64,000 nucleotides of DNA from Candidatus Latescibacterota bacterium (GTDB taxonomy: Bacteria; Krumholzibacteriota; Krumholzibacteriia; WVZY01), in the NCBI GenBank assembly GCA_963791045.1, contig CAWBQK010000004.1, positions 64,001 through 128,000 on the forward strand. Reading direction: 5' to 3'. The notes beneath the pieces were generated by a model. That model was not told the DNA's origin. It ran no database searches and worked only from the letters and a program-made list of their open reading frames with translations. Below are positions 25,306-58,348 of this stretch, one piece after another. Position 1 is the first letter of the stretch, and each line of letters starts with the position of its first letter. Position numbers and translations under genes: made by a program.

Positions 25306-28300
25306 TCACTTCAGGAACACCATCTTTTTGGTCAACGTCTCGCTCCCCGCGTGGAGCCTGTAGAAATATACACCGCTTGCCACGGCATCTCCGTGTGTAT
25401 CGCGCCCATTCCAACTTTCCGAATACATACCAGGCGCCATTATCCGGTCGACGAGTGTGCGGACTTTACGACCCGACACGTCATATACGATGAGGGTGAC
25501 GATATCAGGCTGACCGACAGTGAACCCGATAGTCGTAACGGGATTGAATGGATTTGGAACGTTCTGTCCAAGCGTAAGAGCAAGGGCCGGTGTACCGTCA
25601 CCAATTCCGGTGAGGTCACCGACAACATGGACCGTCTTGTTAGCCGCGTCCGTCTCCACGATCCCGGAAGCGGACGCCGTGACAATCGCCACACCATTCG
25701 CGATAGGATCGAACGCCACTCCCCCACTCGTTACGGTGCCCGCGGACTGGTACGTGCCGACAGGTATCGTTACACTTACTGTGTCATCGGTTTCGAGTGT
25801 CGTGACAAAACCGGCGATCGCATCGTCCGAACTCGCGATCTGTGCCACCTTCGCGACCCCACCCGCGCGAACGGATTGGAGCTGGGCGAGGCCCGACAAG
25901 TCGTTCTCGGGAATACCCACCTGAACAATAAACTCGACGTCTCCTTCCACAATATCGACTGAATCCGGCAGCGATGTGATCTGTATAGCCGGCGCAACTA
26001 TGTCCATCGCCATCACGCCATCGTTGAACGTCGGCACACTTGCCGTCAGAGTTACCGTACCCGTGGTGTCGTCGATTCCATGGATGTAGAAAGTTGCATC
26101 GGTTTGGCCCGCGGTCACCGGCACATCGATGACGGCAGTACCGGGCGTTGCGGCGCCCGACGCGACAAGCAAGATCCCTGCGTCGCTGCTTTCGATATGA
26201 ATCGTCACTCCACCGTGATCGGATACTCCGAGCCGAGCCGTGACCACCCCGCTCTGGAGACCCGCGCCGACCGCAGACGGCGCACCGAGGTACGTGATGC
26301 TCTGATTCGTCACATCGACAACCCGGGTTCCGTCACCGGTCAGTACAAAACCGGGGATCGTCGCCGACACAATCGTTTGACCAACAGCCAGGCCCCGGAT
26401 CGCAACGCCTCCCTCGGCAACCGTGGCGGGCGAACCTGAATTTCCACCGTATATATCAACGGCGACCGTACCACTCGTGTCGGAAAGCGTCACGACCTCG
26501 GCAGTCCCGGAGACCGAACTCACCACGGTCGCAACCAGCGGCGGCGCTCCGACTCGCCGTTTCTGAAGCGTGTTCACGCGTGTAAATGCCGCGTCGCCAA
26601 GCCCGACGTTTATCGTAATAGCATCGGGTGGATCGGATACATCAACCGACGCCCCAATGTCTCGTATGTCCAGCGCCGGCTGAACCACATCAATAATTTC
26701 ACTACTTGATTCGAAACCTGGAACCGTCGCCATGATTGTGACCGAGCCGGTCGTGTCGTCAATGCCGTGCGCGTAAAAGTTGACCAGGGTCGACCCATCG
26801 AGGACCTCGACATCGACATAGACCTCACCCGTATCTTCTTCCGCCGCTGAGACGAGTACAATGTCCGGATCGGTGGATTCGATACGAACCGTCACACCGC
26901 CATGATTGGAAACGCTTAACACCGCCCGCAAACTCGCCGTCTGCAAACCCGACCCCACATCGCCGGGGAGTCCAATCCAGCTGATCGTCGGTGCGGTCAC
27001 GGTCACGTTTTGTGCTGCCGAAGTCATCGGGAGGAACCCGGCGGCTGACACGGACACCGTTGTCACGCCCGGCGAAAGCCCGTTGAATTCGACGCCGCCA
27101 TTGGCCACGGTGGTCGGCGACCTGGACTCACCGGCGGCCACGCTCGTCGTTACCGTTCCACTCGAGTCGGTGAGTGTTTGCAGAATTCCGATCGCCGCAT
27201 TGGAATTCGTCGCCGTCACCGTCACACCCGGCGACCCGGGACGCACTTCCATCGCGGAAACCGTCGCGTTTCCGCCGGCAGGCACGCCAACGCTCACCTG
27301 AAAAGGATCGGGCGGATCAAGTGTATCGATTGTCGTTCTAAGCGAAGAGCTGTACAAACAAATCCCCGGAGTAACAATATCGACGGTGGTCGTTTCCGGC
27401 GTAAAACCGGGCGCTGTTGTCGTCAGCATTACCGTCCCAGTGGTGTCTTCGATTCCATGAATATAGAAGTAAGCAAGGTACTGTCCGTTGGCCATCGGGA
27501 TATCGACTGACGCTTCCCCGACACTGTCACCGTGAACCGAAACCAGCCCGATATCCGTATCGTCGACTTCGACATGAACCGTGACGCCCCCATGCTGCGA
27601 CGCGCCAAGTTGTACACGCGAAGACCCCGATCGAAGTCCAGCCCCCACTTCCGCCGGCACTTGATAAATGAGTTCCGGCTGCGTCACCTCAACGTCCACA
27701 TACGCCGCCGTCGTCGGAAGGAAATTCGGAATTGATGCCGAAACCGTCGTGGTGCCCAACCCGATACCATCGAAGGCAATGCCGCCCGTCGACACGGTCC
27801 CCGCAGTCTGGTATTCGACCGGTGAGATCGTCACCGTCACGGTGTGACTTGTATCGGTCAAAGTCACCAATTGGCCCACCGTCGACTCCGAACTCACTAC
27901 CGTCGCCGTAATACCCGGTCCGCCCGCGCGGGCCCGTTGTGTTTGATAAACCAAAGACAGGTCCGTCGCAGGAATTCCGACACGGACAACAAAAACATCT
28001 TCCGCGTCAAATACATCAATCGATGTGGGAAGTCCATGAATCTGGTACGCCGGGGTCACGATCTCAGCCGCTTCGGCGTCAGGGGCAAATCCCGGAGCGC
28101 TGACAGATATCACAACAATCCCTGTTGTATCCTCGAGCCCCTGGACGTAAAAAGGCACACCAATTTGTCCATCAGCGGCGAAGATATCGAGCGAACCGTG
28201 TCCGCCGTTGGTGTACGCGTCCGCCACCAGGGCCAACGATGAATCGCCGGATTCTATATGTACCATGACACCGCCGTGCGCCCCTCCGCTCAGCGTCGCG

Positions 28301-29139
28301 CTCACCGCGCCGGTTTGAAGTCCGGCGCCTATCTCGCCGGGAAGTGACGTAATGGTTATTTTGGGCGCCTCAACCGTCACCGTCATTGTCGCGGTGTCCG
28401 TCGTGATGAAACCCGGTATGGTCGCCGTTACGTCGGTTGTCCCCGCCGCAAGACCATCGAACCCCACACCGCCCCCACTCACCGTGGACGGAGTCTGTTT
28501 TTCCCCCGCCGCAATCTCGGCGGTGACAACTTGTCCCGTGGCAGGCGTCGTCACAAGTTCCGCCGCCGTCGCATTGGTGTTGGTTATAGTCGCTGTGAGT
28601 CCCGGACCGCCGGAGCGTACTTTATTGGTCGACACAAGATAAGCGCCACCTCCGCCCACAATTCCCACCTGGACCAGAAACTCGTCCACGGGGTCAAATA
28701 CATCGTTAGACGCTGCAAGATTCCAAACCTGGACACCGGGCTGTACAATATCGCACGCCTGATTGACTTCGGCAAAACCCGGAGCGGTTGCCGTAATAGT
28801 CACCGTCCCGGTCGTGTCTTCCAACCCCTGCACGACAAATATTGCATTTATCGAGCCGTTTGGAACATACACGTCCACGTACCTGGCGCCCGCCGTAGTC
28901 TCACCCGGGGACACCAATGAAAGTGTCGTATCGCTGGTTTCGATACGCACGGTAACGCCGCCATGCTGACTGTCACTCAAACGTGCGTATATGGTGCCCG
29001 ACTGCAGGCCCGATCCGACTTCAGAATCGAAATATATGAATGAAATTGACTGAGCTGTTGCGGAAGATGAGAGAAAAACGACAAGCATGAGGCCGAGAAT
29101 ACAGATAACCGCCCTCTTAGCACCGACTGCCGAGATCAT
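25306..29139 (-). CDS. Large secreted Thr/Val/Gly-rich repeat protein with FlgD-Ig/T9SS-like C-terminal domain
   Basis: Signal peptide (ATA-Q), five ~230-aa repeats, C-terminal QNVPNPFNPVTTI...VYDVSGRKV...WNG.D..G..VASGVYFYRL...KKMVFLK. Confidence 0.88.
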   Translation of the reverse strand: MISAVGAKRAVICILGLMLVVFLSSSATAQSISFIYFDSEVGSGLQSGTIYARLSDSQHGGVTVRIETSDTTLSLVSPGETTAGARYVDVYVPNGSINAIFVVQGLEDTTGTVTITATAPGFAEVNQACDIVQPGVQVWNLAASNDVFDPVDEFLVQVGIVGGGGAYLVSTNKVRSGGPGLTATITNTNATAAELVTTPATGQVVTAEIAAGEKQTPSTVSGGGVGFDGLAAGTTDVTATIPGFITTDTATMTVTVEAPKITITSLPGEIGAGLQTGAVSATLSGGAHGGVMVHIESGDSSLALVADAYTNGGHGSLDIFAADGQIGVPFYVQGLEDTTGIVVISVSAPGFAPDAEAAEIVTPAYQIHGLPTSIDVFDAEDVFVVRVGIPATDLSLVYQTQRARAGGPGITATVVSSESTVGQLVTLTDTSHTVTVTISPVEYQTAGTVSTGGIAFDGIGLGTTTVSASIPNFLPTTAAYVDVEVTQPELIYQVPAEVGAGLRSGSSRVQLGASQHGGVTVHVEVDDTDIGLVSVHGDSVGEASVDIPMANGQYLAYFYIHGIEDTTGTVMLTTTAPGFTPETTTVDIVTPGICLYSSSLRTTIDTLDPPDPFQVSVGVPAGGNATVSAMEVRPGSPGVTVTATNSNAAIGILQTLTDSSGTVTTSVAAGESRSPTTVANGGVEFNGLSPGVTTVSVSAAGFLPMTSAAQNVTVTAPTISWIGLPGDVGSGLQTASLRAVLSVSNHGGVTVRIESTDPDIVLVSAAEEDTGEVYVDVEVLDGSTLVNFYAHGIDDTTGSVTIMATVPGFESSSEIIDVVQPALDIRDIGASVDVSDPPDAITINVGLGDAAFTRVNTLQKRRVGAPPLVATVVSSVSGTAEVVTLSDTSGTVAVDIYGGNSGSPATVAEGGVAIRGLAVGQTIVSATIPGFVLTGDGTRVVDVTNQSITYLGAPSAVGAGLQSGVVTARLGVSDHGGVTIHIESSDAGILLVASGAATPGTAVIDVPVTAGQTDATFYIHGIDDTTGTVTLTASVPTFNDGVMAMDIVAPAIQITSLPDSVDIVEGDVEFIVQVGIPENDLSGLAQLQSVRAGGVAKVAQIASSDDAIAGFVTTLETDDTVSVTIPVGTYQSAGTVTSGGVAFDPIANGVAIVTASASGIVETDAANKTVHVVGDLTGIGDGTPALALTLGQNVPNPFNPVTTIGFTVGQPDIVTLIVYDVSGRKVRTLVDRIMAPGMYSESWNGRDTHGDAVASGVYFYRLHAGSETLTKKMVFLK
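25610..29045 (-). repeat. Five tandem ~230-aa (about 690-nt) protein repeats
   Basis: Anchor (V/I)G(S/A)GL(Q/R)..HGGV..F...G(L/I)(E/D)DTTG.V recurs near 29010, 28325, 27640, 26950 and 26260. Confidence 0.88.
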
Positions 29140-29248
29140 GGCGCCCCCCCCTTGCGTGCATGTGAAGTGCAACTGGTTTAGCTATATAATTATATCACGA
29201 CAAGCCGCGGGACGTCCATCCTTGTGACGCACACCTTTGCGGTTCAGT

Positions 29249-32275: not shown

Positions 32276-33802
32276 ATGCGGGTAGCGCTTTCTTTTATCC
32301 TCGTGTTTGCCGTTTTTGTCTCCGTCGCCCACTCCCAGGAACCATTCGATGGCCTGACCATGATTTCTCCCCTGACGACAAACGATAGTTATGTTATCGA
32401 TCTTGATTACAACATCGTCAAGACATGGCATGGCACGAATCCCCCGGCAACCATCGCGCAATTGCTGCCGGACGGTTCGATATTCCGGCCGTGTATCGAT
32501 CCGGACGCCGTATTTGGTCTTGCGGGCGGTGGCGGACGTCTCCAGTTTATCAATGCCGACGATGTCATCACCTGGGATTATATTTTCTCCGATGACACCA
32601 GACGACAGCATCACGATGCCGAACCGATGCCGAACGGAAACGTCCTTATCATCGCATGGGAGAGACATACACAGGCCGAGGCAATCGCCGCGGGGCGACA
32701 AGTTGTCGGGGGCGAAATGTGGTTGACGATGATCGCTGAGATCGAACCGGTTGGCGCAACGGGTGGTAATATTGTTTGGGAATGGCACCTTTGGGATCAT
32801 CTCATCCAGGACGCCGATCCATCGAAAGACAATTATGGCGTCGTGGGCGACCATCCTGAACTCATGGACATCAACTACGGAAACGTGCCCAACAACGATT
32901 GGGATCATGCCAACGCGATTGACTACAATCCGGAGCTCGATCAAATCGTTATTAGTGTTCTAAAGATGAACGAGTTCTGGATCATCGATCACAGCACGAC
33001 AACCGAAGAGGCCGCCGGCCACACAGGCGGGCTGCGCGGACACGGCGGGGATCTGCTCTATCGATGGGGAAACCCGCAGACCTACCGCAGAGGTGATGAA
33101 TCCGATCAGTACTACTTCAATGTGCACGGCGCCAACTGGATCGACCCGTATCTTCCGGGAGCGGGCAATATCTTGACATTCAACAATGGCGACCGGCCGG
33201 CCACCAACGACGACTACTCCAGCGTCGAGGAGATTGTTCCGCCGTTGCAACCGGACGGCAATTATACGATCCTGCCGGGTGAGCCATTTGGGCCCGCCAC
33301 TCCGGTTTGGTCTTATTCACAACCGCCCGCTTTCTACGGGTTCAACCGTTGCGGAGCCTACCGTTTACCCAACGGGAACACGCTGATTTGCGAAACCGCC
33401 GACGCCAATATTTTTGAAGTGGCGATGGACGGCACAAAGGTATGGCAGTACACGGCGCCCGCCGCGGTACACCGCGCGCCGAGATACTGGTACGATATCG
33501 TGGGTATAACGGATCAACCGAGCCGCGCTTCCGTCGTACTCGAGAATTACCCAAACCCCTTCAATCCACAGACCACGATCACGTTTGATTTGCCCGTCAA
33601 CGGTCGCGCGCGGATCGATGTCTATGACGTCACGGGCGGGCTTGTGACCACGCTGTTGGACACACCTATGAGCGCGGGACCCCAACACGTCGCATGGGAT
33701 GGCCGCGACCGTCATGGCCGGCCCGCCAGCTCGGGGGTCTATTTCTACAGACTGACCGCGCCCGGTCTGACGCGAACCAACAAAATGGTCCTGTCTAAAT
33801 AA
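32276..33802 (+). CDS. Arylsulfate sulfotransferase (ASST)-like protein with FlgD-Ig/T9SS-like C-terminal domain
   Basis: QHHD...MPNGN, IVWEW...DH, DWDHANAIDY, YRWGNPQ, RLPNGNTLI; C-terminal NYPNPFNPQTTI...SGVYFYRL. Confidence 0.88.
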   Translation: MRVALSFILVFAVFVSVAHSQEPFDGLTMISPLTTNDSYVIDLDYNIVKTWHGTNPPATIAQLLPDGSIFRPCIDPDAVFGLAGGGGRLQFINADDVITWDYIFSDDTRRQHHDAEPMPNGNVLIIAWERHTQAEAIAAGRQVVGGEMWLTMIAEIEPVGATGGNIVWEWHLWDHLIQDADPSKDNYGVVGDHPELMDINYGNVPNNDWDHANAIDYNPELDQIVISVLKMNEFWIIDHSTTTEEAAGHTGGLRGHGGDLLYRWGNPQTYRRGDESDQYYFNVHGANWIDPYLPGAGNILTFNNGDRPATNDDYSSVEEIVPPLQPDGNYTILPGEPFGPATPVWSYSQPPAFYGFNRCGAYRLPNGNTLICETADANIFEVAMDGTKVWQYTAPAAVHRAPRYWYDIVGITDQPSRASVVLENYPNPFNPQTTITFDLPVNGRARIDVYDVTGGLVTTLLDTPMSAGPQHVAWDGRDRHGRPASSGVYFYRLTAPGLTRTNKMVLSK

Positions 33803-33840: not shown

Positions 33841-34797
33841 TCAAAAAGAACCGTCTCCCGGTCCTCTTCGCAGCGAGTAACGGCGTTCGGCATACGCCGC
33901 ATCTTCCACCCAGAGCTTGCGGGCGCTCCGTCGGATCAGCGGACGTATTACCGAGCCAAACGTCTTTATGAAAAAATGAAATTGCGGGCGCTCCGACGTC
34001 GCGAGCGTTGCCTCGGTGACAATGGTCCGCCCCGGCTCTACGCGCGTCGCATGGGTCTCGACGACGGAACCAATCCCCTCCCCACCGATGATGGTCATCA
34101 CAATCGTTCTGGGTTCCGGGCAGTAAAAACGAGCATCGACTTCCATACCGAAATTCTTAAAAAAACGATACACCACACGGACTGTTATTGAGTCCTCCCG
34201 CTGATCGATGACCTTGAGACGCGCAAACGAGTGCGGATGGAAGTGAGCGCCGTGCCAGGGATCGAGTCTGTTGGCGATCACATCCTCCGGTTCGCACCGC
34301 GCTTCTTTTTGTATAACGGCGTCGAGAAACCGCACAGGCCTCGGCGGGATTATCGGGGCGGGTGTGCTATCGTCGTCCTCGCAAATTCGGATCCACACAA
34401 GCACACCGTCATCAAATGAAATCACCGGCCGCCACTTTCCGTGCGGTTCACTTCCAAGAACGAGGCCGTGCCACGGGCACACCACGCAATCGTCCTTTAC
34501 CGAACCGTCCGCGAGAGATGCTCCCATGTGCGGACATTCATCCGGCGCCACGACAACGCCCGCACTCGATCTCCACGCAACGTAGTCCCGACCTTCAATC
34601 CGAAATCGGCGGGGTTTTTCCTCGACATCCCGGGACGCCCCAACGACACACCATCCACCCGACGGAAGTTCGAGCGCCCGCTTCAGAGACTTTTCTACCC
34701 AGGGCCGACGCGCCTGGACCCAGTCCGGATCGGTTGATACCGGTTCGGCGGGTTCCAGTCCCCGTCCAAAGAGCTTTAATCCTCCGGATTCCCTCAT
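33841..34797 (-). CDS. crtV: Rieske [2Fe-2S] plus DUF5914-type protein (Streptomyces CrtV-like)
   Basis: CPHMGASL...CPWHG Rieske motif; CEPEDVIANRLDPWHG..FHPHSF, GEGIGSVVETHAT, LWVEDAAYAERRY; last gene of the crt cluster. Confidence 0.8.
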   Translation of the reverse strand: MRESGGLKLFGRGLEPAEPVSTDPDWVQARRPWVEKSLKRALELPSGGWCVVGASRDVEEKPRRFRIEGRDYVAWRSSAGVVVAPDECPHMGASLADGSVKDDCVVCPWHGLVLGSEPHGKWRPVISFDDGVLVWIRICEDDDSTPAPIIPPRPVRFLDAVIQKEARCEPEDVIANRLDPWHGAHFHPHSFARLKVIDQREDSITVRVVYRFFKNFGMEVDARFYCPEPRTIVMTIIGGEGIGSVVETHATRVEPGRTIVTEATLATSERPQFHFFIKTFGSVIRPLIRRSARKLWVEDAAYAERRYSLRRGPGDGSF

Positions 34798-34846
34798 TCC
34801 AACTCCTTCAAAGACGATGGCGCTCTATCTATCAGATAATCATGTA

Positions 34847-36346
34847 TCAGAATGCAAAGCGTGAGAACATTCCACGCGGTGAAATCGAGTACACCGGCTC
34901 AGGCTCAACACCGAGCTCGCAAAGGTAATGATTCGCCGCTATAAAGCCCGACGCGGCGGCGCGTTCCATAAGCGCGCTCGGAAAAGGCAGTTTGACGAAA
35001 TCCCCCGCTATTGAAACACCGGGGAACGGAGTCTCAACACCGGGCCTCTTTGCATAAGAACCCGGCGCGAACGCGGGGCAATCCTGCCGGACAAAAAACC
35101 GTTCATCGACAATCCGTGCGTCTTTTGTTTCCGGATACAACAAATGCAGCGCGGAAAGAAGCTCCCGCTTCAATCCTTCTTCCTGCCAATCGCTGCCGAC
35201 CGCATAGGCGTGAAGCTCGACCACCGACCCATCATTTTTTTCGGACCACTCGCGGCTCTCATCCTCGAACAACTCGTACACGGATATATTGTCGATTGAT
35301 CCCAACCCTGTCGTTCCTACGAAAGGCGAGCGCCCACTGGCCGAGGGTCGATCGAGCCAAATTCGCCAGACGGCAAACGGATTCGTGAGTGAGAGTCCCT
35401 CTACCGACGCGCGCCATTCGGGATGATCCAGGTCGGGTGAAGCGGCGACGATCTCCCGGATCGCCGGCACCGTTACCGCCAGCACAACTCCACCGGCATC
35501 GACTGACATCGACTCGGTCGAAACGCGCCATCCGTTGTCGCTTCGTCGCCTGATCCCCGTAACCGTTTCACCTTTGAAAATAGACACCCCGCGTCCACGA
35601 AGATAGTCGGCGAAAGGATTCCAGATCGATTTCGAAAACGGCGCGTTAGCCACATCAAAGATCAGACCCTCGGGGTTCCCTGTAAAATAGAAATGAAACA
35701 TCATGAGGAGTTCACCCGCCGACATCTCTCGCTCGGGGTTGAAGAACGAGTGCGCGAACACGTCGAAAAGAAGCCGCCGCGCATCGGGCGGAAAACGGAG
35801 CGAGTCGAGAAACTCACCAGCATTCATGGTATCGCGTCGTTCGTACGTTTTCTTCACATCATAAGTCAGCATCTCCATCGCCCGCCGGGCGTCGACCCGG
35901 GCCAGGTCGCGGAGTGTCAGGGCCGGGGTTCTCGCTGTTAGCGCCATGACATTCCATGGGGTCCGGCGCGGGAGGTTTGAAAAACTCTGCACCTGGCCTT
36001 CCGCCCCAAGGATTGGGTAATCATCGAGCGGAACCAGGAACCCGAGCTCCGCGTCCAACCGCCGAAGAAGCGCTTGCAGGTTGTAGTACTGTCTGAAGAA
36101 AGCGTGAAAACCCCTTTCCATTTCGAAGGTTGTGTCGTCGACAAGCTTGTCAGTCCATGCACCGGCGCGCCCGCCCAGGAACGTCTCTTTCTCGATCAAA
36201 GTGACATCAACACCGCGCTCGGCAAGAACCGTCGCCGCCGAAATACCCGCGATCCCTCCACCGACGACCACCGCGGTCGCGGTCTCGTCGACTCGAGTTT
36301 TCCCTCCGGGCCGCGGCGACATATAAGTCTGTATGGGCCTTCCCAT
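34847..36346 (-). CDS. crtU: FAD-dependent carotenoid aromatic-ring synthase (isorenieratene synthase, CrtU-like)
   Basis: VGGGIAGISAA..LAERG, LGGRAGAW, RGFHAFFRQYYNL, FAHSFF, MSAGELLMMFHFYF, VVELHAYA, ALMERAA. Confidence 0.82.
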   Translation of the reverse strand: MGRPIQTYMSPRPGGKTRVDETATAVVVGGGIAGISAATVLAERGVDVTLIEKETFLGGRAGAWTDKLVDDTTFEMERGFHAFFRQYYNLQALLRRLDAELGFLVPLDDYPILGAEGQVQSFSNLPRRTPWNVMALTARTPALTLRDLARVDARRAMEMLTYDVKKTYERRDTMNAGEFLDSLRFPPDARRLLFDVFAHSFFNPEREMSAGELLMMFHFYFTGNPEGLIFDVANAPFSKSIWNPFADYLRGRGVSIFKGETVTGIRRRSDNGWRVSTESMSVDAGGVVLAVTVPAIREIVAASPDLDHPEWRASVEGLSLTNPFAVWRIWLDRPSASGRSPFVGTTGLGSIDNISVYELFEDESREWSEKNDGSVVELHAYAVGSDWQEEGLKRELLSALHLLYPETKDARIVDERFFVRQDCPAFAPGSYAKRPGVETPFPGVSIAGDFVKLPFPSALMERAAASGFIAANHYLCELGVEPEPVYSISPRGMFSRFAF

Positions 36347-37071
36347 TATCCTTCCCTTCTTGCGACAAAGCTATGAACGACTCCACGCTGCCATCCATCC
36401 ATTGCCTCTACCCGAACGTCGACGAACCCCGCTTCTCGCAAACGCGCCGTCAAGGTGAGGACACCGTCAAATTCGAGAACGCTCCGTCTCAGATACCGGA
36501 AGATCGTCGTCGTACCGGTGAAAACAAACCCGAGCGGGATTACGATTCCCGCCGTCACCGCCTTCCAGGTAATCTGACTCCGGCGCGAATCGGCAACCGA
36601 GTATTCGTGCAGGCAGATCGTCCCGCCGGGCGAAAGCAGATTGTTCAGCCTTTTGAGACAGAGATCGGGATCCGTGACGTTCCGAATCCCATAGGCCATC
36701 AGAATGCCGTCGAACGGACCCACAGCCCCCGCGGCGGCAGGATCCATTGCATTCCCCTCTATAAACACCACGTCGCCAAGGGTCTTTTTGCCTTGCGCGA
36801 CGGCAAGCATTCCGGAGGACGCATCGAGCCCGGTAATTTCCGCGTCGGGATACTGTTTTCGTAGCGCGACCGTGGAAAGCCCGGTGCCGCAACACAGATC
36901 GAGAATCCTCGCGGTTTCGGGGAGGCCCAGGCGCTCGGCGCTCCAGCGAAGGTGCTTGGTGTACCCCGGGTTCAATGCACAGAGAAGATCATACCCTTTG
37001 GCAACGCGGTCGAATTCGGAACCGATTTCTCTTTTGTCCGCGGTTAGTCCGAGATTCTTTTCGTTTTTCAT
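36346..37071 (-). CDS. crtT: Class I SAM methyltransferase (CrtT-like)
   Basis: YDLL.ALNPGY..HLR.SA, LDLCCGTGLST, MAYGIRN, YLRRSV..FDG, GWQRGVVHSF; immediately upstream of crtU. Confidence 0.78.
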   Translation of the reverse strand: MKNEKNLGLTADKREIGSEFDRVAKGYDLLCALNPGYTKHLRWSAERLGLPETARILDLCCGTGLSTVALRKQYPDAEITGLDASSGMLAVAQGKKTLGDVVFIEGNAMDPAAAGAVGPFDGILMAYGIRNVTDPDLCLKRLNNLLSPGGTICLHEYSVADSRRSQITWKAVTAGIVIPLGFVFTGTTTIFRYLRRSVLEFDGVLTLTARLREAGFVDVRVEAMDGWQRGVVHSFVARREG

Positions 37072-37093
37072 ACGATCCTTTCGAATCCAAAGA

Positions 37094-37585
37094 TCAATAG
37101 TTGAGCTTGATCCGGATCACAATTGGATCACCAGACGTCAAAAATGATGCAGCTTCAAAACTCGGCGGTCCAAACCGGCCTTTTGCGTTATTGGAAAATC
37201 CGTAACCCTCGCTCGGGCGGCCGATGACATCGGTTTCCATCGAGTCATTTCCGTTTTCATCGTGATACACCGAAACCGCGTAGCGGCCGGACGGCACCAT
37301 TTCGATCGTGAACTCAACGGTCTCACCCGTGATCGGCAACTCCAGACGCCGGTACACTTTTTCCATTTTACCCGGGAATCCTTCGGGTGTATTGAAGAGC
37401 GCGAGTCGTATCACGCCCTCGCTGTGCTCAATCCCTTCGATAACAACCTTTACCGCCGCTGTCTTGCTCGTGTCAATTCCGGCTTCCGACGACGCCCGGC
37501 CCTCCACCCGTTTCGTACAACCGATGGCAATCGATATAAAAAGACCCGCAACAATCACGGCGATTATCGTTTTCAGATTAGTCAT
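37094..37585 (-). CDS. DUF2141-domain lipoprotein
   Basis: G.YAVSVYHDENGN..M.T...G.P.EGYGFSNNA....GPPSF; lipobox AIGC; ATGA overlap with crtB. Confidence 0.85.
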   Translation of the reverse strand: MTNLKTIIAVIVAGLFISIAIGCTKRVEGRASSEAGIDTSKTAAVKVVIEGIEHSEGVIRLALFNTPEGFPGKMEKVYRRLELPITGETVEFTIEMVPSGRYAVSVYHDENGNDSMETDVIGRPSEGYGFSNNAKGRFGPPSFEAASFLTSGDPIVIRIKLNY

Positions 37586-38538
37586 ACCGGTAGAACGTCC
37601 TCGGGAAATTGCACACGGCGGCTCGGCGCCGCCAGTCGCGACCCTGATCGGAGTCGAGCCACTGCTCGACCTGGCACTTCGGCGATCGAGCATCCCAATG
37701 CCGCCGACGTGAGTAAGAGCTTTTGAGTCAATGGAACAACGGCTCGCCCGGCGATTGGGTCGCAGTTCGCACGTCGGACTCTCGAGCCGATCGCCGAATA
37801 GACATTTCTCGCCGTCCGAATCGATAGTGCGCACCGCCACGATAGAGCGTGCAGCCCCCTGTCGCCTGAAGCATAGTAGCGCTGAGCCTCATCGAGCAGC
37901 GCGCCCGTCGATCGAGCAACGGCATTTTGCGCATGTTCGGGGAACGCCTGCCCCAGTGAACCGGCAAGGCTTGGACATCCCTCCGCAGCGAGAATTTCTT
38001 CGGGGATGTACAACCGGCCGCGATTCCAGTCCTCGAGAACATCGCGGCAAATATTGGTAATTTGCATCGCCATCCCCAGGTGGACTGCATTTCGGGTTGC
38101 ACGTTCATCCGTCACGCCCATCACGTGACACATCATAAGTCCGACCGTCCCCGCTACGCAGTAGCAGTAGCGAAGAAAAGTCTCCATATCGACGTAGATT
38201 GTGCCGACAACATCCATCTCCATCCCCGAAAGTAAATCGTCAGCGTAATCCCGATAGATCCCGCACTCTTCGGCAACACTTTGAAAGACCGCCAGGACCG
38301 GATCATCGAGGGTTCGTCCTGAATAGACATCATCAAGCTCTTTTCTCAGCCGTTCGAGAGCCGCACTTTCTTCTCCGGGCGCGGCGAGGTCGATGGCATC
38401 GTCGGCCCGTCGACACCACGCGTAGACCACGACGGCACGTTGGCGCACACCATGAGGAAGCAGCCTCGAAGCGAGGGAAAAACTCTTGGAGTGATGACGG
38501 ATGATCTCGTCACACGTCTGCAACGGGTCTTTAATCAC
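37582..38538 (-). CDS. crtB: Phytoene synthase
   Basis: SKSFSLAS, YAWCRRADDAID, GMEMD, YCYCVAGTVG, LGMAMQITNICRDV.ED...GRLY. Confidence 0.95.
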   Translation of the reverse strand: MIKDPLQTCDEIIRHHSKSFSLASRLLPHGVRQRAVVVYAWCRRADDAIDLAAPGEESAALERLRKELDDVYSGRTLDDPVLAVFQSVAEECGIYRDYADDLLSGMEMDVVGTIYVDMETFLRYCYCVAGTVGLMMCHVMGVTDERATRNAVHLGMAMQITNICRDVLEDWNRGRLYIPEEILAAEGCPSLAGSLGQAFPEHAQNAVARSTGALLDEAQRYYASGDRGLHALSWRCALSIRTARNVYSAIGSRVRRANCDPIAGRAVVPLTQKLLLTSAALGCSIAEVPGRAVARLRSGSRLAAPSRRVQFPEDVLPV

Positions 38539-40043
38539 TTGAGAAAATCCTCTATAACGAGTTTAACCGTCGCCTTCGCGGAATTCATCACGCCGGGCAC
38601 ACCGGCCCCCGGATGAGTCCCCGCTCCAACGATGTAAAGACCGGGGATTCGATCGTCACGGTTGTGTGGCCTGAACCACGCGCTCTGTGTAAGCTTCGGC
38701 GCGCAGGAGAACGCCGACCCCATATACGTGTTGTAGACGTCCTTGAAGTTCTGTGGCGTGAACCACAACTTCGTCACGATATGTTTTCGAAGATCCGGGA
38801 GGTCCCTCTCGAGGTACGCAAGAATACGGTCCGCATACTCTTCACCGATTGTGTCCCAATCGAGCGGCGCGTTTCCGAGGTGCGGCACCGGCGACAACAC
38901 GTAAAAGGTTTCGCATCCGGGGGGCGCCAAAGTCGGGTCCGTCACCGTGGGCGCGTGAAGGTACAAACTGAAATCTTCGGGGAGCTTATTGCCGTAAAAA
39001 ATATCGTCGAGCAATCCCTTGTATCGCGGCCCGAACAAGATCGTGTGGTGCGCCACCTGCTCGTCGTATCGTCGGTTGGTGCCGAAATAGAGAACAAAGA
39101 GCGACATCGACCATTCCATTTTCTCCAGCCTGCGCTTCATCGGCGCCGCATCGGCAGCCCCGCCAAGCAACGTCGAATATGTGTGGTGTACGTCGGCATT
39201 CGACACAACGAGATCGAACGGTTCACGCTCTATCGCCTGAGTACTAACAAGATGCCTTGCGCGTCCGCTTCCCTTCTCGACGTCAATCTTTGACACTTCC
39301 GTCGTGAGCCGGATCTCTCCGCCCAGTTCCTGAAAGAGCTTGACTATTGCGCGGACAAGCGCGCCGGTCCCACCCCTGGGGAAAAACACACCCCACTCGC
39401 GTTCAAGGTAATGAATCAGCGTATAAATCGAACTCGTGTCGTACGGATTGCCCCCAACGAGAAGTGAGTGAAAACTAAGCGCCTCCCTGACATGCTCATT
39501 TTTAACATAACCGCTCACTGTCTTGTAAACCGAGCGATCCGCCCTCAAGCGTATGAGCGCGGGCGCGACTCGGATCATATCTCTGAACCGCAGAAAAGGT
39601 GTCGCGGCGAGCTCTGAATATCCAGCAATGAAAACGCGGCGCGCATAGTCCGTAAATTTGAGATATCCGTCCACATCGGAGGGATTCCGCTCCCTGATTT
39701 GCGCGATCATGGATTCGGAGTCACCATTGTAATTGAATGTATCGCCGTCTTCCCAGATGAGACGATAAAAAGGATCGACGGGAATCATCTCGACGTAGTC
39801 TGCAAGAACTCGCCCCGTTTCTGAAAACAGCTCTTCAAAAATCATAGGAGCCGTTATAACCGTCGGTCCTCCGTCGAAAATAAACCCCTGATCTTCGTAC
39901 ACGTACGCCCTTCCACCTGGTCGATCGCGCTTTTCAAATACGGTGGTTTGGATACCCGCGTTCTGCATCAAAACGGCGGCGGCGAGTCCGCCGAAACCGC
40001 TTCCTATCACCGCGGCGCGCGGTGAGGATGTGCCGCTATTCAT
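38535..40043 (-). CDS. crtI: Phytoene desaturase
   Basis: VIGSGFGGLA, PGGRAYV, FDGGPTVIT, SFHSLLVGGNP, SMSLFVLYFG, QSAWFRPHNRD, GAGTHPGAGVPGV. Confidence 0.96.
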   Translation of the reverse strand: MNSGTSSPRAAVIGSGFGGLAAAVLMQNAGIQTTVFEKRDRPGGRAYVYEDQGFIFDGGPTVITAPMIFEELFSETGRVLADYVEMIPVDPFYRLIWEDGDTFNYNGDSESMIAQIRERNPSDVDGYLKFTDYARRVFIAGYSELAATPFLRFRDMIRVAPALIRLRADRSVYKTVSGYVKNEHVREALSFHSLLVGGNPYDTSSIYTLIHYLEREWGVFFPRGGTGALVRAIVKLFQELGGEIRLTTEVSKIDVEKGSGRARHLVSTQAIEREPFDLVVSNADVHHTYSTLLGGAADAAPMKRRLEKMEWSMSLFVLYFGTNRRYDEQVAHHTILFGPRYKGLLDDIFYGNKLPEDFSLYLHAPTVTDPTLAPPGCETFYVLSPVPHLGNAPLDWDTIGEEYADRILAYLERDLPDLRKHIVTKLWFTPQNFKDVYNTYMGSAFSCAPKLTQSAWFRPHNRDDRIPGLYIVGAGTHPGAGVPGVMNSAKATVKLVIEDFLK

Positions 40044-41064
40044 ATGCTTTCTCCAGTTTTTGAACGTCTTCGCAAATATATTGCATGTGCGGCGAATCGC
40101 CGATCGCGTTGTACAAGTCGGTGACGGTCTGTCCGAGATGGGCGTGGATTCGATCATGGGCCATCGGCGCCAGGACTTTTCGCATTCTATCGATGACCTT
40201 TTCGGCATCCCAGTCAATCGATACGGCGTCCGCCTGCCTGGCGATTCCGGCGTATGTCACATCATCGCAATTTTCAGCGAGCCATGCCCACGGCCATGTA
40301 GGCCGCGCGTGGCGTATGTCTTCGATTCCCTTTTCTCTTCGCTTGAGGTTATTGATACCGCTCCAATCGTCAATCATTTGGAGTCCCAGGCCGAAATTGG
40401 CCCCAAACAGCGCCAGCGCCGCTGTCGTCGGTGACGACGCCCCGGCAGCGTGAGCCCCGATCAGCGCAGCCAGCTCCATCAGCGACCCGGTTTTCAGCCG
40501 GGTCGATCGAGCGACGACGATGGGAACCTGCTTCCTGGGCACATTCGTAATCTTCACCGTAAGATCGAGCGCCTGCCCCTTGTGGCATCTGAGCAAACCC
40601 AGGCTGATATCTTCAAAAAGCGCGAGGCGCACCGGCGCATCGAGTTTGACCCGAAAAAGAAGCGTCAGCGCCAAGAAATACATCCAATTTGCTGTATTGA
40701 GAGCGACCGGCACACCGTAGCTCCTGTGCAAGGCCGGCCCACCCCTGCGCGTCTCCGAATCATCCTCAATGTCGTCGATGACGAGGGAGCCGACGTGAAG
40801 CAGTTCGACCAGCACAGGAAGGACGTCGGGCGGTCCTTCGGCCGCCCCACCGGCGAGATGCCATGAGTGCTCGAGGACCGCGGCGCGAACGCCCTTACCC
40901 GAGCGGCTGAGAATATCCCGCGCCGGATCGAGCAGCGCTCGGTTCCAAAACGCCTGATCGAGGTCTTCATAATCGGCGCCTTCCGGCGGCAGACGCTCGA
41001 ACAACCCTCGCATGAGTTCCGAGAGATCGGCGTCGGGTCCCAACAATTTGTCGGCGAGATTCAC
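40036..41064 (-). CDS. crtE: Polyprenyl (geranylgeranyl) diphosphate synthase
   Basis: GKGVR, ELLHVGSLVIDDIEDDS.TRRG, GQALD, KTGSL, QMIDD. Confidence 0.88.
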   Translation of the reverse strand: MNLADKLLGPDADLSELMRGLFERLPPEGADYEDLDQAFWNRALLDPARDILSRSGKGVRAAVLEHSWHLAGGAAEGPPDVLPVLVELLHVGSLVIDDIEDDSETRRGGPALHRSYGVPVALNTANWMYFLALTLLFRVKLDAPVRLALFEDISLGLLRCHKGQALDLTVKITNVPRKQVPIVVARSTRLKTGSLMELAALIGAHAAGASSPTTAALALFGANFGLGLQMIDDWSGINNLKRREKGIEDIRHARPTWPWAWLAENCDDVTYAGIARQADAVSIDWDAEKVIDRMRKVLAPMAHDRIHAHLGQTVTDLYNAIGDSPHMQYICEDVQKLEKAYE

Positions 41065-42218
41065 GACTGTTTTCCCCTTCTCGTTCGAAAACGAACTGAT
41101 AACCCCGCGGGGGGCTTTCCGGCCAGCAAACGAATCCGGTCGAAAAATGTCATTCGCAGAGCATAGAAACGCCTGATCGTCTCAATAGGAAACCGATAAA
41201 ACCGTTTGAATATATGCCACCGCGACTCCGGTGGATACCAGCGGAACAGAAAATTATTGAGCAGATGGCAGTACCGGGACTGGGACGCGTGGGGACGGAC
41301 CAGTTCATCGAGACCCCGCCGCGCGAGTTCTTCTGTTGAGCTCGCCGCGATGTAAGCTGCAACTCGGGCGGCGATGGGAAACGAATATCCCGTAGCCGGA
41401 TGAAACCAACCGCCCCGATAACCCGCTACGATGGGCCCCGCCGACCCGTTTGGGAGCGATCCCGTCCACGGCATCGGGAGCACCCCGGTCTCCTCGCGAA
41501 CAACGGCCGAGATGACATATCCTCGCTCCTCGGCGTACCGCATGATTTCGGCTCGAATCGCGTCTACGTTCAATTTTTGTGAATGATGAAAATAGGTGTC
41601 CTCGATGAGCAATCTGTCGGACGCCAACGGGAGAATATACATAAACCGGAATCCGTTTGTCTGATCCACCGTCGCATCCATCAACACCGGCATCTTCAAA
41701 TCGTGCGGTGTCGAAAGATCGACCTCGAGGCCCACAAATTTCTGAAAACCCGCCGTGAACTCGAGGCCATCGGCCTGCTCAGGTCCGCGGGCGTCAATCA
41801 CGACAGTCCCGGTCACTATTGCTCCGCCGGAGAGGTGAACCCCGTTGCTTTCTATCCGGCTCGCCTCCTCGCCGAGGAACAAACGGGACCCTTCATGTTT
41901 TTCGATGACGTCACGAACCACGCGGTCCATGCGATCGCTCGTTATCGCCGATAGGCGCCATCGATCGTCCACTGAAAGCCGGGGAAACAAACCGAGTAAG
42001 AAGGCCATCGGTGACACACCAGACGGCGCAACCCAATCGAGAACCGCGGGCGCGACATCTTCGGAGTGAAAACACCGCGTGTGGTTACCGCCGAGCCTGG
42101 TCTCGCGTTCGACGATGGCGATACGCACAGCCGGATTGTGCGCCCTAAGCGCAAGCGCAATCAAACCGCTTTGGAGCCCGCCCCCAACAAGTATATATTC
42201 ATATTCAGCTGCAACCAT
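41061..42218 (-). CDS. crtY: Lycopene beta-cyclase (CrtY type), with an internal compensated frameshift pair at about 41950-42023
   Basis: LVGGGLQSGLIA, GGNHT, VIDARG, FQKFVG, MDATVDQ..GFRFMY.LP, IEDTY, FHPATGYS, RFYRFP...I.RFYA. Confidence 0.9.
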   Translation of the reverse strand: MVAAEYEYILVGGGLQSGLIALALRAHNPAVRIAIVERETRLGGNHTRCFHSEDVAPAVLDWVAPSGVSPMAFLLGLFPRLSVDDRWRLSAITSDRMDRVVRDVIEKHEGSRLFLGEEASRIESNGVHLSGGAIVTGTVVIDARGPEQADGLEFTAGFQKFVGLEVDLSTPHDLKMPVLMDATVDQTNGFRFMYILPLASDRLLIEDTYFHHSQKLNVDAIRAEIMRYAEERGYVISAVVREETGVLPMPWTGSLPNGSAGPIVAGYRGGWFHPATGYSFPIAARVAAYIAASSTEELARRGLDELVRPHASQSRYCHLLNNFLFRWYPPESRWHIFKRFYRFPIETIRRFYALRMTFFDRIRLLAGKPPAGLSVRFRTRRGKQS

Positions 42219-42383
42219 GATCCTAACTTGCTTCTGTTAGATCACAATATACCAACCGGGAGACGACCGCCACGGCAATCGTATAGTATTCGCATGTCGA
42301 TTCGTCGCGGGAATCTTCGTGAGCGCCGAACAACCGGTGTATCCGTGCCCGAACCGGGGTTAGAAATTCATTTCATCGGGGGA

Positions 42384-43136
42384 TCAACGGTGGTTTTTGG
42401 GTTTTTCGAAGACCATGAAATGCTGCCATGGGAGAGCAAAACTAGTCCCAAGCCATTTGAGCCCCACCGCCTCCATTTCAACGCGGGCCTGTCGTTCCGA
42501 CATTTTGTGGAGAGGCTTCATCGGCACGTCCGGGTCCTCCGCTCGATATTCGACGAGTACGACTCGCCCGCCGGGACTGAGTGAGCTGAAGATGTTACGC
42601 ATCATCTCATATGGGTGCGAAAATTCATGGTAGGCGTCGACAAGCAGAACCATGTCGACACTTTCGTCAGGCAGTTTTGGATCGAAGATGCTCCCACGCA
42701 CCGGGATCACGTTGTCCACCCGGTTTCGAACCATCCGTTCCTGGATGAACTCGAGCATTTCGGGCTCGATGTCGACCGCGTAGACCTTTCCTTCTGGCAC
42801 AAGTGGGCTGATCCGAAACGTGAAATAGCCGGTTCCAGCGCCAATGTCCGCGACGACATCGGTCTTGGAAAGCGAGAGTTTGCGGATAAGCACATCGGGG
42901 GCCTCTTCGGCCTCGCGATCACCGCGTTCGAGCCACTCGGCACCGCGATGACCCATGACCTGCGCAATCTCTCTCCCCATATAAAACTTGCCCGTGCCGT
43001 CCCGCGATGCCTTTCCATATGTATAGACCGAGTCCGCCGTAGTCCCCGCCGAAGCGGGGACGTAGGCCAGAGTAATAGTGCACCAAGCGCCATCGCCGTT
43101 ATCGCGCGGCCCGGCCGACTTAACATGTTCGTTCAT
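42384..43136 (-). CDS. Class I SAM-dependent methyltransferase (probably exported)
   Basis: MGREIAQVMGH.GA.WLER, ADIGAGTGYF, VDAYHEF, LPWQH. A signal peptide starting at ATG 43126 is in another frame and would join near 43070. Confidence 0.85.
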   Translation of the reverse strand: MNEHVKSAGPRDNGDGAWCTITLAYVPASAGTTADSVYTYGKASRDGTGKFYMGREIAQVMGHRGAEWLERGDREAEEAPDVLIRKLSLSKTDVVADIGAGTGYFTFRISPLVPEGKVYAVDIEPEMLEFIQERMVRNRVDNVIPVRGSIFDPKLPDESVDMVLLVDAYHEFSHPYEMMRNIFSSLSPGGRVVLVEYRAEDPDVPMKPLHKMSERQARVEMEAVGLKWLGTSFALPWQHFMVFEKPKNHR

Positions 43137-43316
43137 CCCTCCTTTCCGGTGTTTCCCGGATGATTTGCGACCCCAACGCCGTCCTCCAAACCTAACCGTC
43201 CCTATACACAGGAGCAAGTGAGAACGGATGAATCCCGACCCGCCTTACTCATGCAAATATATCATGTTGTTAATTAACACGTTAGAAGATAGTGGTGAAA
43301 TTTATCAAGAATTCGG

Positions 43317-53100: not shown

Positions 53101-53197
53101 GGTTCCACGCGAGGATACCGCCGAGCATCAATACAATGGTGGCGATGATCACCAGCAATCGTTGATGAAGGACAAATTGAATCAGTTTGTCGAGCAT
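50111..53197 (-). CDS. czcA: CusA/CzcA heavy-metal efflux RND permease
   Basis: LPIDAFPDVTNVQV, GPISTGLGEIYQY, ANLMSLGG, EGKMFRPLA, GGQFENQQRA, R.RP.LMTA, GSEIQRPLATVV.GG. Confidence 0.95.
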   Translation of the reverse strand: MLDKLIQFVLHQRLLVIIATIVLMLGGILAWNLLPIDAFPDVTNVQVMILTEAPGLAPVDVEQQITFPIELAMQGLPDVSLVRSLSKAALSQVIVVFEDHVDTYFARQLVFERLQSAKETLPEFVEPEMGPISTGLGEIYQYTVESDTRTPMELRTIQDWIIAPQLKSLAGVNEVNSFGGLVKQYQVLVNPNQLLKYGQTLDGVMEAIKRNNANAGGNFLIQGWEQSYVRSVGLIQTISDIENIVLEASDGTPIYLKDVATVQPGAETRQGAVSRDAKGETVAGMVIMLKGENSKIVVDRVKKTVPKIQASLPDDVRIDPFYDRTSLIQACIRTVGFALLQGSIFVVIILFLFLGNLRASVIVALSLPLTAMFAFIMMKWQGVTANLMSLGGLAIAIGMIVDASVVIAENISRHLSDAKNAAASRIEITYRAVCEVARPLLFAIVIIIVVFVPILLLEGMEGKMFRPLALTVCFAMIGSLLVSFTIVPVLCSLFLREGVVSRENALVRVMKQSYLRVLSWTLKRRRRTILIAFGVLAVSLLLTPLIGTEFLPSLNEGAIAVNIVRLPSASLEGSVAVGTEIERVLLERFPEVKTVVTKTGRAEISEDPMGPEQSDVFIMLHPQREWRTGRNREELVDGIQIELSKIPGIRLSFSQPIALRVNELVSGIKSDVAIKVFGSDLEILRENANRIAFAIGGIEGAEDVKVEQVAGFSQVEIVVDRTAIARHKINLADINDIVETAVGGKIASTVVEGQKRFAVLVRFPEEYRADIEALERILISSPEGTNVPLGQLAAINQIEAPAQISRENGMRRVVVESNIRGRDMGSFVTEVQQRIEPVVEALPAGYYVEYGGQFENQQRAMHRLGIVVPISILLIFLMLFSTFNSMRSALLVLVNLPFALIGAILAMVLLRMDLSVPATIGFIALFGIAVENGTVLITFINQLRADGMDTIDAVTRGCELRFRPLLMTALTTLLGLLPLIYATGNGSEIQRPLATVVLGGLVTSLLLTQIVLPVLYTLVEDKWGAKLH

Positions 53198-53206
53198 GTC
53201 CCTCTC

Positions 53207-54548: not shown

Positions 54549-54562
54549 GTCCGCTCCTCCAA

Positions 54563-56537: not shown

Positions 56538-56614
56538 TGGAGGCGGCACCCGGATTCGAACCGGGGAATAACGGTTTTGCAGACCGTCGCCTTAAACCAC
56601 TTGGCTATGCCGCC
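56538..56614 (-). tRNA. tRNA-Cys (GCA)
   Basis: GGCGGCATAGCCAAGTGGTTTAAGGCGACGGTCTGCAAAACCGTTATTCCCCGGTTCGAATCCGGGTGCCGCCTCCA: cloverleaf, anticodon GCA, encoded CCA. Confidence 0.97.
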
Positions 56615-58273: not shown

Positions 58274-58348
58274 TGGAGCGGGAAACGGGATTCGAACCCG
58301 CGACATCGACCTTGGCAAGGTCGCGCTCTACCACTGAGCTATTCCCGC
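58274..58348 (-). tRNA. tRNA-Gly (GCC)
   Basis: GCGGGAATAGCTCAGTGGTAGAGCGCGACCTTGCCAAGGTCGATGTCGCGGGTTCGAATCCCGTTTCCCGCTCCA: anticodon GCC, encoded CCA. Confidence 0.97.

Follow-up and report, generated by a model that had tools for sequence, protein, structure and literature searches.

The gene clusters closest to the locus studied here are known from Streptomyces and Pantoea. For the isorenieratene cluster of Streptomyces (S. griseus, S. coelicolor, S. rimosus) a crtYTU/crtEIBV layout is described in the accessible parts of two papers (PMC13505331, PMC13098539). The crtEXYIBZ zeaxanthin cluster of Pantoea proceeds to beta-carotene via CrtE, CrtB, CrtI and CrtY. More distant relatives are present in phototrophs, in particular the okenone-type CrtU of Thiodictyon and the CruE-like proteins of cyanobacteria. 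In this work we analyzed a 64,000 bp stretch of DNA from Candidatus Latescibacterota bacterium (contig CAWBQK010000004.1, positions 64,001–128,000; the whole stretch is referred to below as the window) and revealed on its minus strand, at 33841–42218, a co-directional set of eight genes: crtY, crtE, crtI, crtB, a gene for a DUF2141 lipoprotein, crtT, crtU and crtV. These genes probably constitute a single operon by which a non-phototrophic bacterium of the Krumholzibacteriota/'Latescibacterota' that respires oxygen would make an aromatic carotenoid of the isorenieratene type, with phi-rings.

In the S. anulatus locus, a lycopene cyclase, a class I methyltransferase and an oxidoreductase face a polyprenyl synthase, a phytoene desaturase, a phytoene synthase and a DUF5914 protein. 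The window contains the same seven gene types; as in Streptomyces, its CrtU lacks a Rieske insert, its CrtV combines Rieske and DUF5914 domains, and crtT, crtU and crtV are contiguous. Unlike the two facing operons of Streptomyces, however, the window genes make up a single co-directional operon with CrtI, CrtY and CrtB of proteobacterial type and an extra DUF2141 lipoprotein gene, and the host belongs to a Gram-negative candidate lineage. Thus, T, U and V orthologues occur together as in a Streptomyces-type cluster, while actinobacterial E, I, B and Y genes in two facing operons were not found. From the Pantoea cluster the locus differs by the lack of crtZ and crtX, in whose place the T-U-V aromatization module is found.

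The level of protein identity is in line with this picture. The window proteins are identical to those of S. anulatus by 43% (CrtT), 47% (CrtU) and 47% (CrtV), and by only 33% for CrtI, 37% over a part of CrtB and about 30% over a part of CrtY; the protein in the crtE position had no Streptomyces match at E 1e-5. In a plasmid collection, Streptomycetaceae replicons carried CrtU homologues with 44–47% identity, and none of the 108 records matching CrtY was from Streptomyces. The closest relatives of known type for the early enzymes are instead from Pantoea and Comamonas (57–59% identity for CrtI) and from Pantoea (37–38.5% for CrtY). The initial annotation of the window had described the operon as a mosaic, and these identities, with Pantoea-type CrtI and CrtY joined to a Streptomyces-type T-U-V module, agree with that description. 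The mosaic appears to be old and not special to the window genome, because it is common to all the Gram-negative loci described below.

To assess the conservation of the operon we used 58 related loci, found as close relatives of the CrtU-like protein in a search of one genome per species. Their common order, revealed by tblastn with the window proteins, is Y-E-I-B-(DUF2141)-T-U-V. All eight genes in full order were present in five loci, and Y, I, B, U and V occurred together in 22. Adjacency was counted in the 53 loci where the sequence extends 1 kb or more beyond crtU. In 52 of them crtV started no more than 400 nt after crtU (on the same strand in 48), the sole locus without an adjoining crtV being that of Nannocystis bainbridge (L035), the only isolate, in which crtT and crtU are present; crtT stood directly before crtU in 46. 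Since the order recurs across related loci and crtV follows crtU in almost every one, the arrangement of the genes is not due to chance.

The least constant members are crtT and the DUF2141 gene. The latter is located between crtB and crtT/U in 15 of the 58 loci. The crtT gene was missing in L008, L009, L028, L029, L031 and L055, all of which keep crtV; in L008 and L009 no crtT was found between the DUF2141 gene and crtU. Similarly, crtT was not detected in the S. rimosus record L076, which retains crtV. It should be added that in S. viridifaciens (L078:6648-6845) crtT is shrunk to a remnant of 65 aa while crtV is kept.

The individual genes of the window could be assigned as follows. The first gene, crtY (41061–42218, minus strand, as are all eight), encodes a lycopene beta-cyclase of 385 aa (PF05834 Lycopene_cycl, 7.7e-60), which scores 291.5 bits against the NCBIfam equivalog TIGR01789, above the cut-off of 215.2. 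It is followed by a gene at 40036–41064 for a polyprenyl diphosphate synthase of 342 aa (PF00348 polyprenyl_synt, 7.4e-36). No NCBIfam model matched this protein at cut-off; its gene is kept at the same place in related loci, with 41–73% identity, and the product is predicted to be a geranylgeranyl diphosphate (GGPP) synthase. The crtI gene (38535–40043) encodes a phytoene desaturase of 502 aa (TIGR02734 crtI_fam, 2.3e-196, 653 bits); by reading of the sequence its start was moved from the longest-ORF position 40217 to the ATG at 40043. For the phytoene synthase encoded by crtB (37582–38538; 318 aa; PF00494 SQS_PSY, 3.1e-68) the top NCBIfam matches were phytoene synthase models, under their cut-offs. 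The same holds for the product of crtT (36346–37071), a class I SAM-dependent methyltransferase of UbiE/MenG type (241 aa; PF01209 Ubie_methyltran, 2.2e-25), which matched the UbiE/MenG models under their cut-offs. The last two genes encode a CrtU-like FAD-dependent carotenoid desaturase without Rieske insert (34847–36346; 499 aa; PF01593 Amino_oxidase, 1.1e-34) and CrtV (33841–34797; 318 aa), in which a Rieske [2Fe-2S] domain (PF00355, 9.5e-13) is joined to DUF5914 (PF19299, 3.5e-69).

The DUF2141 gene (37094–37585; 163 aa; PF09912, 9.9e-34) also required a corrected start, at the ATG at 37585 instead of 37840. The protein then begins with a signal peptide and a Cys lipobox, and a hydrophobic N-terminal helix followed by Cys is kept in seven of nine aligned homologues. 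Its structural model is a beta-sandwich (pLDDT 84.4) for which the fold search gave no PDB match at E <= 1e-3; in the protein atlas it matched other DUF2141 clusters only.

Five of the seven gene junctions overlap (Y/E, I/B and B/DUF2141 by 4 nt, E/I by 8 nt, T/U by 1 nt), and two have gaps (22 nt for DUF2141/T and 49 nt for U/V). The crtE start overlaps the crtY stop region, and the crtB start the crtI stop, in a GTGA motif, and the 8 nt overlap places the crtI ATG before the crtE stop. The proposal of the initial annotation that eight genes lie in this order on one strand, mostly with overlapping stop and start codons, therefore stands, the families being matched by Pfam and NCBIfam. Upstream of crtY there is an intergenic region of 165 nt (42219–42383, minus strand) that, on reading the sequence, is presumed to contain the promoter. 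A promoter and terminator scan with the sigma-70 consensus found no site in it, and matches over the whole region were no more numerous than in shuffled sequences. The methyltransferase ORF located further upstream (42384–43217) could have been a ninth gene of the unit, but as none of the 58 related loci contains a counterpart of it, it was not included. Among public sequencing runs, four contained small shares (0.08–0.10) of the operon words, and no RNA run was listed as containing them.

From the protein families we infer every catalytic step of the pathway and its product. The synthase in the crtE position would supply GGPP, from which CrtB would form phytoene and the Pantoea-type CrtI lycopene; CrtY would then close the rings to give beta-carotene. 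The Rieske-less CrtU, like its relatives in Streptomyces, would desaturate the beta-ring and shift a methyl group, leading first to beta-isorenieratene and then to isorenieratene. CrtV would work together with CrtU, either by passing electrons through its [2Fe-2S] centre or, as we favour, by oxygenating the aromatic end group, and the UbiE-like CrtT, dispensable in some lineages, would methylate the product after CrtV. The end product may accordingly be a modified aromatic carotenoid. The DUF2141 lipoprotein would be an accessory protein of the envelope.

The key step of this scheme depends on CrtU. It matches PF01593 and NAD_binding_8, and G29, G30, G31 and G34 of the N-terminal GxGxxG motif are invariant, as is typical of the FAD fold of phytoene desaturases; among solved structures, plant phytoene desaturase (5mog) is the closest. 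We placed it in a tree of 64 rows, with three partial rows (L038, L059, L063) dropped. The anchors were four Streptomycetaceae sequences and two outgroups (Calothrix, Thiodictyon), while CrtU of green sulfur bacteria and of Brevibacterium, as well as other desaturase families, were outside the tree. The 62 CrtU proteins without a Rieske insert were split from the Calothrix CruE-like protein and the Thiodictyon CrtU (SH-aLRT 100), and 57 Gram-negative rows formed one group (97) beside the four-row Streptomycetaceae clade (100). As to the check proposed by the initial annotation, namely that the protein should fall in the CrtU clade, it groups with the four Streptomycetaceae sequences and apart from the two forms with a Rieske insert, which supports membership of that clade but does not settle it.

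We also considered that the CrtU-like enzyme of the Gram-negative clade is not an aromatase and catalyzes some other desaturation, giving a non-aromatic carotenoid. In the papers searched none of the 57 Gram-negative rows has a demonstrated product, identity to Streptomyces CrtU is no higher than 44–47%, and NCBIfam makes no specific assignment for the protein. Nevertheless, the clade groups with Streptomyces CrtU, shares with the Streptomyces cluster the accessory genes T and V, and is accompanied by a beta-cyclase, from which the expected substrate would come, and we regard a non-aromatase as very unlikely. The nearest functional anchor for these CrtU relatives, by analogy, is a crtEIBV+crtYU construct of S. 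rimosus, for which formation of isorenieratene is reported with high-resolution MS in the accessible part of the paper (PMC13098539).

The most distinctive protein of the operon is CrtV. The Rieske ligands C88, H90, C107 and H110, in the CxH...CxxH pattern, do not vary among 59 homologues, some of which are from Streptomycetaceae. The mononuclear iron site of Rieske oxygenases consists of D-x2-H-x4-H and a distal carboxylate. D179, H182, H187 and D299 of CrtV, which we take to be the counterparts of these residues, are invariant in the same 59 homologues and likewise in a set of 31 sequences. The structural model (pLDDT 88.6, pTM 0.86) was matched by Foldseek over its full length to GxtA/SxtT, KshA, DdmC (dicamba monooxygenase), guaiacol O-demethylase, CntA and CarAa (carbazole dioxygenase) at E about 4e-13, and it has the same layout of a Rieske domain followed by a helix-grip catalytic domain. 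As with the alpha3-type Rieske oxygenases (KshA, DdmC, SxtT/GxtA, CntA), with which the model aligns over about 300–330 columns, the Cys/His and Asp/His ligands are conserved, and the Rieske domain matches KshA and DdmC also by sequence. Unlike them, CrtV has only 13–17% identity, its catalytic domain is recognized only as DUF5914, and it is tied to carotenoid genes. Because the match extends over the whole length, the model identifies DUF5914 as the predicted catalytic domain of an alpha3-type Rieske oxygenase, and CrtV is best interpreted as a complete Rieske non-haem-iron oxygenase.

With 66 representatives at E <= 1e-30 in 1.84 billion, this is a compact family; it also occurs in natural fusions, of which CrtV is the C-terminal part in every case. 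Among 97 longer homologues, 72 combined CrtB with Rieske and DUF5914 (in Nocardioides and other actinobacteria), 23 combined CrtU with Rieske and DUF5914, one was a lycopene cyclase fusion and one was of another kind. In the phototroph proteins the arrangement is different. The homologous FAD-dependent desaturase fold is present in Thiodictyon CrtU (634 aa) and in the CruE-like protein of Calothrix (650 aa), with 31–36% identity in two blocks, but unlike the window CrtU they carry a Rieske domain in mid-chain, at a point that aligns between window residues 263 and 264. No DUF5914 partner was found adjoining them, and Thiodictyon CrtU is located among photosynthesis genes. Given the mid-chain inserts, the CrtU-CrtV fusions and the adjoining crtV genes, a Rieske centre appears to accompany the aromatase family in three forms: inserted, fused and adjacent. 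As a separate observation, both Thiodictyon CrtU (L069:5791-7695) and the Calothrix protein (L068:3735-5687) have an N-terminal extension, lacking in the window CrtU, with Arg-Arg and then a hydrophobic stretch, presumably similar to a twin-arginine signal.

These forms could be read as a sign that CrtV is only a redox partner of CrtU, its Rieske centre taking electrons from the CrtU flavin and DUF5914 taking no part in oxygenation. This idea is supported by the position of the insert in the phototroph proteins, by the nearly constant association of Rieske-less CrtU with CrtV and by the 23 clusters of CrtU-CrtV fusions. On the other hand, D179, H182, H187 and D299 would not be needed for pure electron transfer, and their invariance speaks against it. 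Since fusions to CrtB are commoner (72 of 97), the fusions of CrtV seem to follow gene adjacency and not a specific contact with CrtU. In addition, CrtU alone works in Escherichia coli. A predicted CrtU-CrtV complex scored 0.15 against a mark of 0.32, which counts neither way. On balance, a pure redox role of CrtV seems unlikely to us.

Tailoring oxygenation by CrtV is favoured because its catalytic ligands are invariant and because crtT is lost where crtV is kept. A stronger form of this proposal, which refines the scheme given above, is that isorenieratene is only an intermediate, which is oxygenated and afterwards methylated to give the final aromatic carotenoid: CrtV would hydroxylate the phi-ring or one of its methyl groups, and CrtT would methylate the new group. 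Phenolic derivatives of isorenieratene are known in Streptomyces and Brevibacterium. The complete fold of the CrtV model with its invariant iron and [2Fe-2S] ligands, the adjacency of crtV and crtU in 52 of 53 loci and a host with an aerobic oxidase (see below) all fit, and so does the loss of crtT in the six loci listed above, S. viridifaciens and S. rimosus, if methylation is an optional last step. However, the operon contains no gene for a reductase or ferredoxin partner, and in the literature searched we found no paper that mentions DUF5914 or PF19299, a link of CrtU with a Rieske protein or the function of crtV. The S. rimosus construct, moreover, is reported to give isorenieratene in spite of the presence of crtV, and the accessible part of that paper describes no other products. 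We therefore consider this end product a possibility worth attention, although a somewhat improbable one.

The window lies on a 192-kb contig of a 3.66-Mb genome in 21 contigs (80.9% complete, 5.8% contamination). Two genomes of the same family, G010 and G012, contain the related loci L010 and L011, the records of which are titled Ca. Latescibacterota. In the same class, G057 contains L024 (Ca. Latescibacterota), another genome agrees with L026 (Ca. Krumholzibacteriota) in its coordinates, and L027 (Krumholzibacteriia) clusters with G037. The assignment of the host to Krumholzibacteriota or Latescibacterota in the initial annotation is thus supported by record titles at both ranks, and the RpoB fragment of the window genome is 93% identical to that of G010. 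It should be mentioned that the rpoB matches of the window genome (L070, contig C5:44991-48769) extend over three frames with in-frame TGA codons and fall into nine pieces, none over the family cut-off. This points to indel errors of the assembly or to a disrupted gene; no such damage affects the crt genes.

Both flanks of the operon match the family genomes G010, G012 and G002 with 71–77% DNA identity. A syntenic block joins 14.5–25.2 kb of the window to 811–823 kb of G010, a second pair of matches lies near 59–62 kb, and the GC content is even across the window (0.52–0.59). As the flanks match family genomes, synteny is preserved locally and GC is even, the contig appears, by the tests made, to be native to the family and not chimeric; the chimeric, actinomycetotal or myxococcal contig that the initial annotation had named as a possible flaw is not what we found.

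Some data could still be taken to mean that the contig is misbinned or chimeric and that the operon belongs to another organism, for example the host of L008 or L009. The window proteins are closer to these two loci (CrtU 76–77%, CrtI 80–81%) than to the same-family L010 and L011 (68% and 77%, respectively), even though the RpoB fragment is only 61% identical to that of the L008/L009 hosts (compared with 65% to a Gemmatimonadales MAG, metagenome-assembled genome), and the contamination is estimated at 5.8%. Against this stand the family-like flanks on the same contig, the block syntenic with G010, the even GC and the topology of the CrtU tree, in which the window protein groups first with L008/L009 (99) and these three then with L010 and L011 as their sister (98), as would be expected for a family-native cluster passed to the L008/L009 lineage. 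We consider misbinning extremely improbable. An approximately unbiased (AU) test on a 20-row subset under LG+G4 rejected a tree in which L010 and L011 were grouped with the window to the exclusion of L008/L009 (p-AU 0.0057); this group was chosen when the tree was already known. The simplest reading is that the cluster was resident in the family of the window genome and was passed to the distant L008/L009 lineage.

The distribution of CrtU among 60 relatives of the window genome is patchy. It was found in seven of them: in 2 of 12 genomes of the own family, in none of 23 of a sister family, and in 4 of 5 and 1 of 5 genomes of two others. The crt cluster of G010 is located elsewhere than the homologues of the window flanks, and the flanking genes show no shared synteny among the 58 related loci.

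Type II (Photo_RC) and type I (PsaA/PsaB) reaction centre genes were found in none of 61 genomes (the window genome and its 60 relatives), 39 of which are at least 90% complete. In the window genome BchL gave no match above the cut-off, the scores being far below it. Unlike a green sulfur bacterium that produces isorenieratene, the window genome thus yielded neither type I reaction centre nor bacteriochlorophyll genes. No rhodopsin was matched in it either, but this blank carries no weight because the model matched none of 14 control genomes. A haem-copper oxidase subunit I (COX1) was detected with 507 bits. The description of the host as non-phototrophic, for which the initial annotation had asked that psc and bch genes be looked for, is in agreement with these results at the completeness of the genome given above.

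Several points weigh against the proposed operon function and have to be set beside the evidence given so far. CrtU alone suffices for isorenieratene in heterologous hosts such as E. coli, and CrtV would then be unneeded for aromatization. The placement of the window CrtU relies on four Streptomycetaceae sequences and two outgroups, so that membership of the clade is supported rather than closed, and a search of NCBIfam yielded no CrtU model, the best match being HpnE with 158 bits, under its cut-off of 283. The literature searched contains no reported product for any non-actinobacterial member of the CrtU clade. As S. rimosus with CrtV still gives isorenieratene, as far as the accessible part of that report goes, complete conversion to an oxygenated product is also disfavoured; the S. 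rimosus sequence in our comparison (L076) is a record of a different strain from that used there (PMC13098539). Finally, the PsaA_PsaB control matched only in a cyanobacterium, which makes the reach of this model toward the green-sulfur type uncertain, and at 80.9% completeness the absence of photosynthesis genes from the window genome is not proven. With all these points taken into account, an operon for an aromatic carotenoid remains, in our opinion, the probable explanation.

Other features of the window are mentioned here for completeness. The product of an ORF convergent on crtV (32276–33802, plus strand) resembles arylsulfotransferases and has at its C-terminus a FlgD_ig domain, possibly a secretion-sorting tag. 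About 11 kb from the operon, within the block syntenic with G010, there is a gene for a UbiA-family prenyltransferase (21627–22640, minus strand). An ORF of 1288 aa (25306–29172, minus strand) had no Pfam match at E <= 1e-5 and is partly covered by a DNA match to G010 with 64% identity. An RND efflux operon with an AcrB-type pump, a HlyD-type adaptor and an outer-membrane factor occupies 50111–55942 on the minus strand, which also carries tRNA-Cys(GCA) at 56538–56614 and tRNA-Gly(GCC) at 58274–58348, both 95–96% identical to stretches of family genomes.

The records of the 58 related loci are titled Ca. Latescibacterota, Ca. Krumholzibacteriota, Gemmatimonadota, Myxococcota/"Deltaproteobacteria" and Spirochaetia, with one Acidobacteriota and one Alphaproteobacteria MAG; MAGs with the T-U-V module come from sediment, soil and sludge. 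In a large protein collection CrtU was matched by 5899 of 8000 scored candidates and CrtV by 4541 of 8000 (E <= 1e-10). Judging from these sequences, the operon is a widespread type and not peculiar to the window genome. Many of the CrtU and CrtV homologues are named "isorenieratene synthase" by JGI, where CrtU corresponds to KEGG K09879, a carotenoid phi-ring synthase. Many stand-alone Rieske+DUF5914 proteins thus bear the same label as CrtU, probably since the reference sets contain fused or Rieske-bearing forms, and label-based counts of crtU may therefore be inflated.

The accessible parts of two papers hint at such genes outside phototrophs: CrtU homologues were noted in an apparently non-phototrophic uncultured phylum (Ward & Shih 2022, PMC9342728), and CrtU was listed in Myxococcota (Li et al. 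2023, PMC10576062). An antiSMASH-based work lists isorenieratene clusters in marine Gemmatimonadota MAGs (PMC11316326). The view of the initial annotation that the locus is an unrecognized source of aromatic carotenoids is thus overstated: the host and the operon are as described, but the operon type is widespread, homologues already carry the JGI name, and the literature contains hints of CrtU in non-phototrophs. For Krumholzibacteriota and Latescibacterota our literature search found nothing in this respect, and supplementary CrtU trees (PMC9342728 S2 Fig, PMC2889829 Fig S13) may already show related sequences. The gene kinds are therefore known and already labelled by annotation pipelines, and what we regard as leads is how widespread and mobile the operon is, together with the identification of CrtV as a putative Rieske oxygenase linked to the aromatase.

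Taken further, these leads would amount to a much wider proposal, which we put forward tentatively and consider rather doubtful as a whole. According to it, T, U and V would act as a system of three enzymes, with CrtV as a Rieske oxygenase specific to carotenoids, and ring aromatases of carotenoids would in general require a Rieske centre, be it inserted, fused or separate. Hydroxylated or methoxylated aromatic carotenoids would be produced by aerobic heterotrophs in at least five phyla (Krumholzibacteriota/'Latescibacterota', Gemmatimonadota, Myxococcota, Spirochaetota and an Acidobacteriota-titled lineage). The operon would pass from phylum to phylum, and these organisms would represent a large source of isorenieratane-type fossils that arise where conditions are oxic and non-sulfidic. 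Independently of this proposal, the predicted assignment of CrtV and DUF5914 to the Rieske oxygenases offers a function, open to testing, for a gene left without explanation in the cluster of Streptomyces.

The presence of isorenieratane and other aryl isoprenoids of this kind is interpreted as a sign of green sulfur bacteria and of photic-zone euxinia. According to the accessible part of one paper (Cui et al. 2020, PMC7395447), cyanobacteria and actinobacteria already count as further sources. To these the window adds a complete, conserved and apparently laterally mobile operon in non-phototrophic, oxygen-respiring Gram-negative lineages. If the operon is expressed and phi-ring carotenoids are made, the list of possible sources of isorenieratane would widen, and compound-specific carbon isotopes would then be needed to separate these sources. 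The occurrence of the operon in several non-photosynthetic phyla thus bears on the use of aromatic pigments as fossil markers of green sulfur bacteria.

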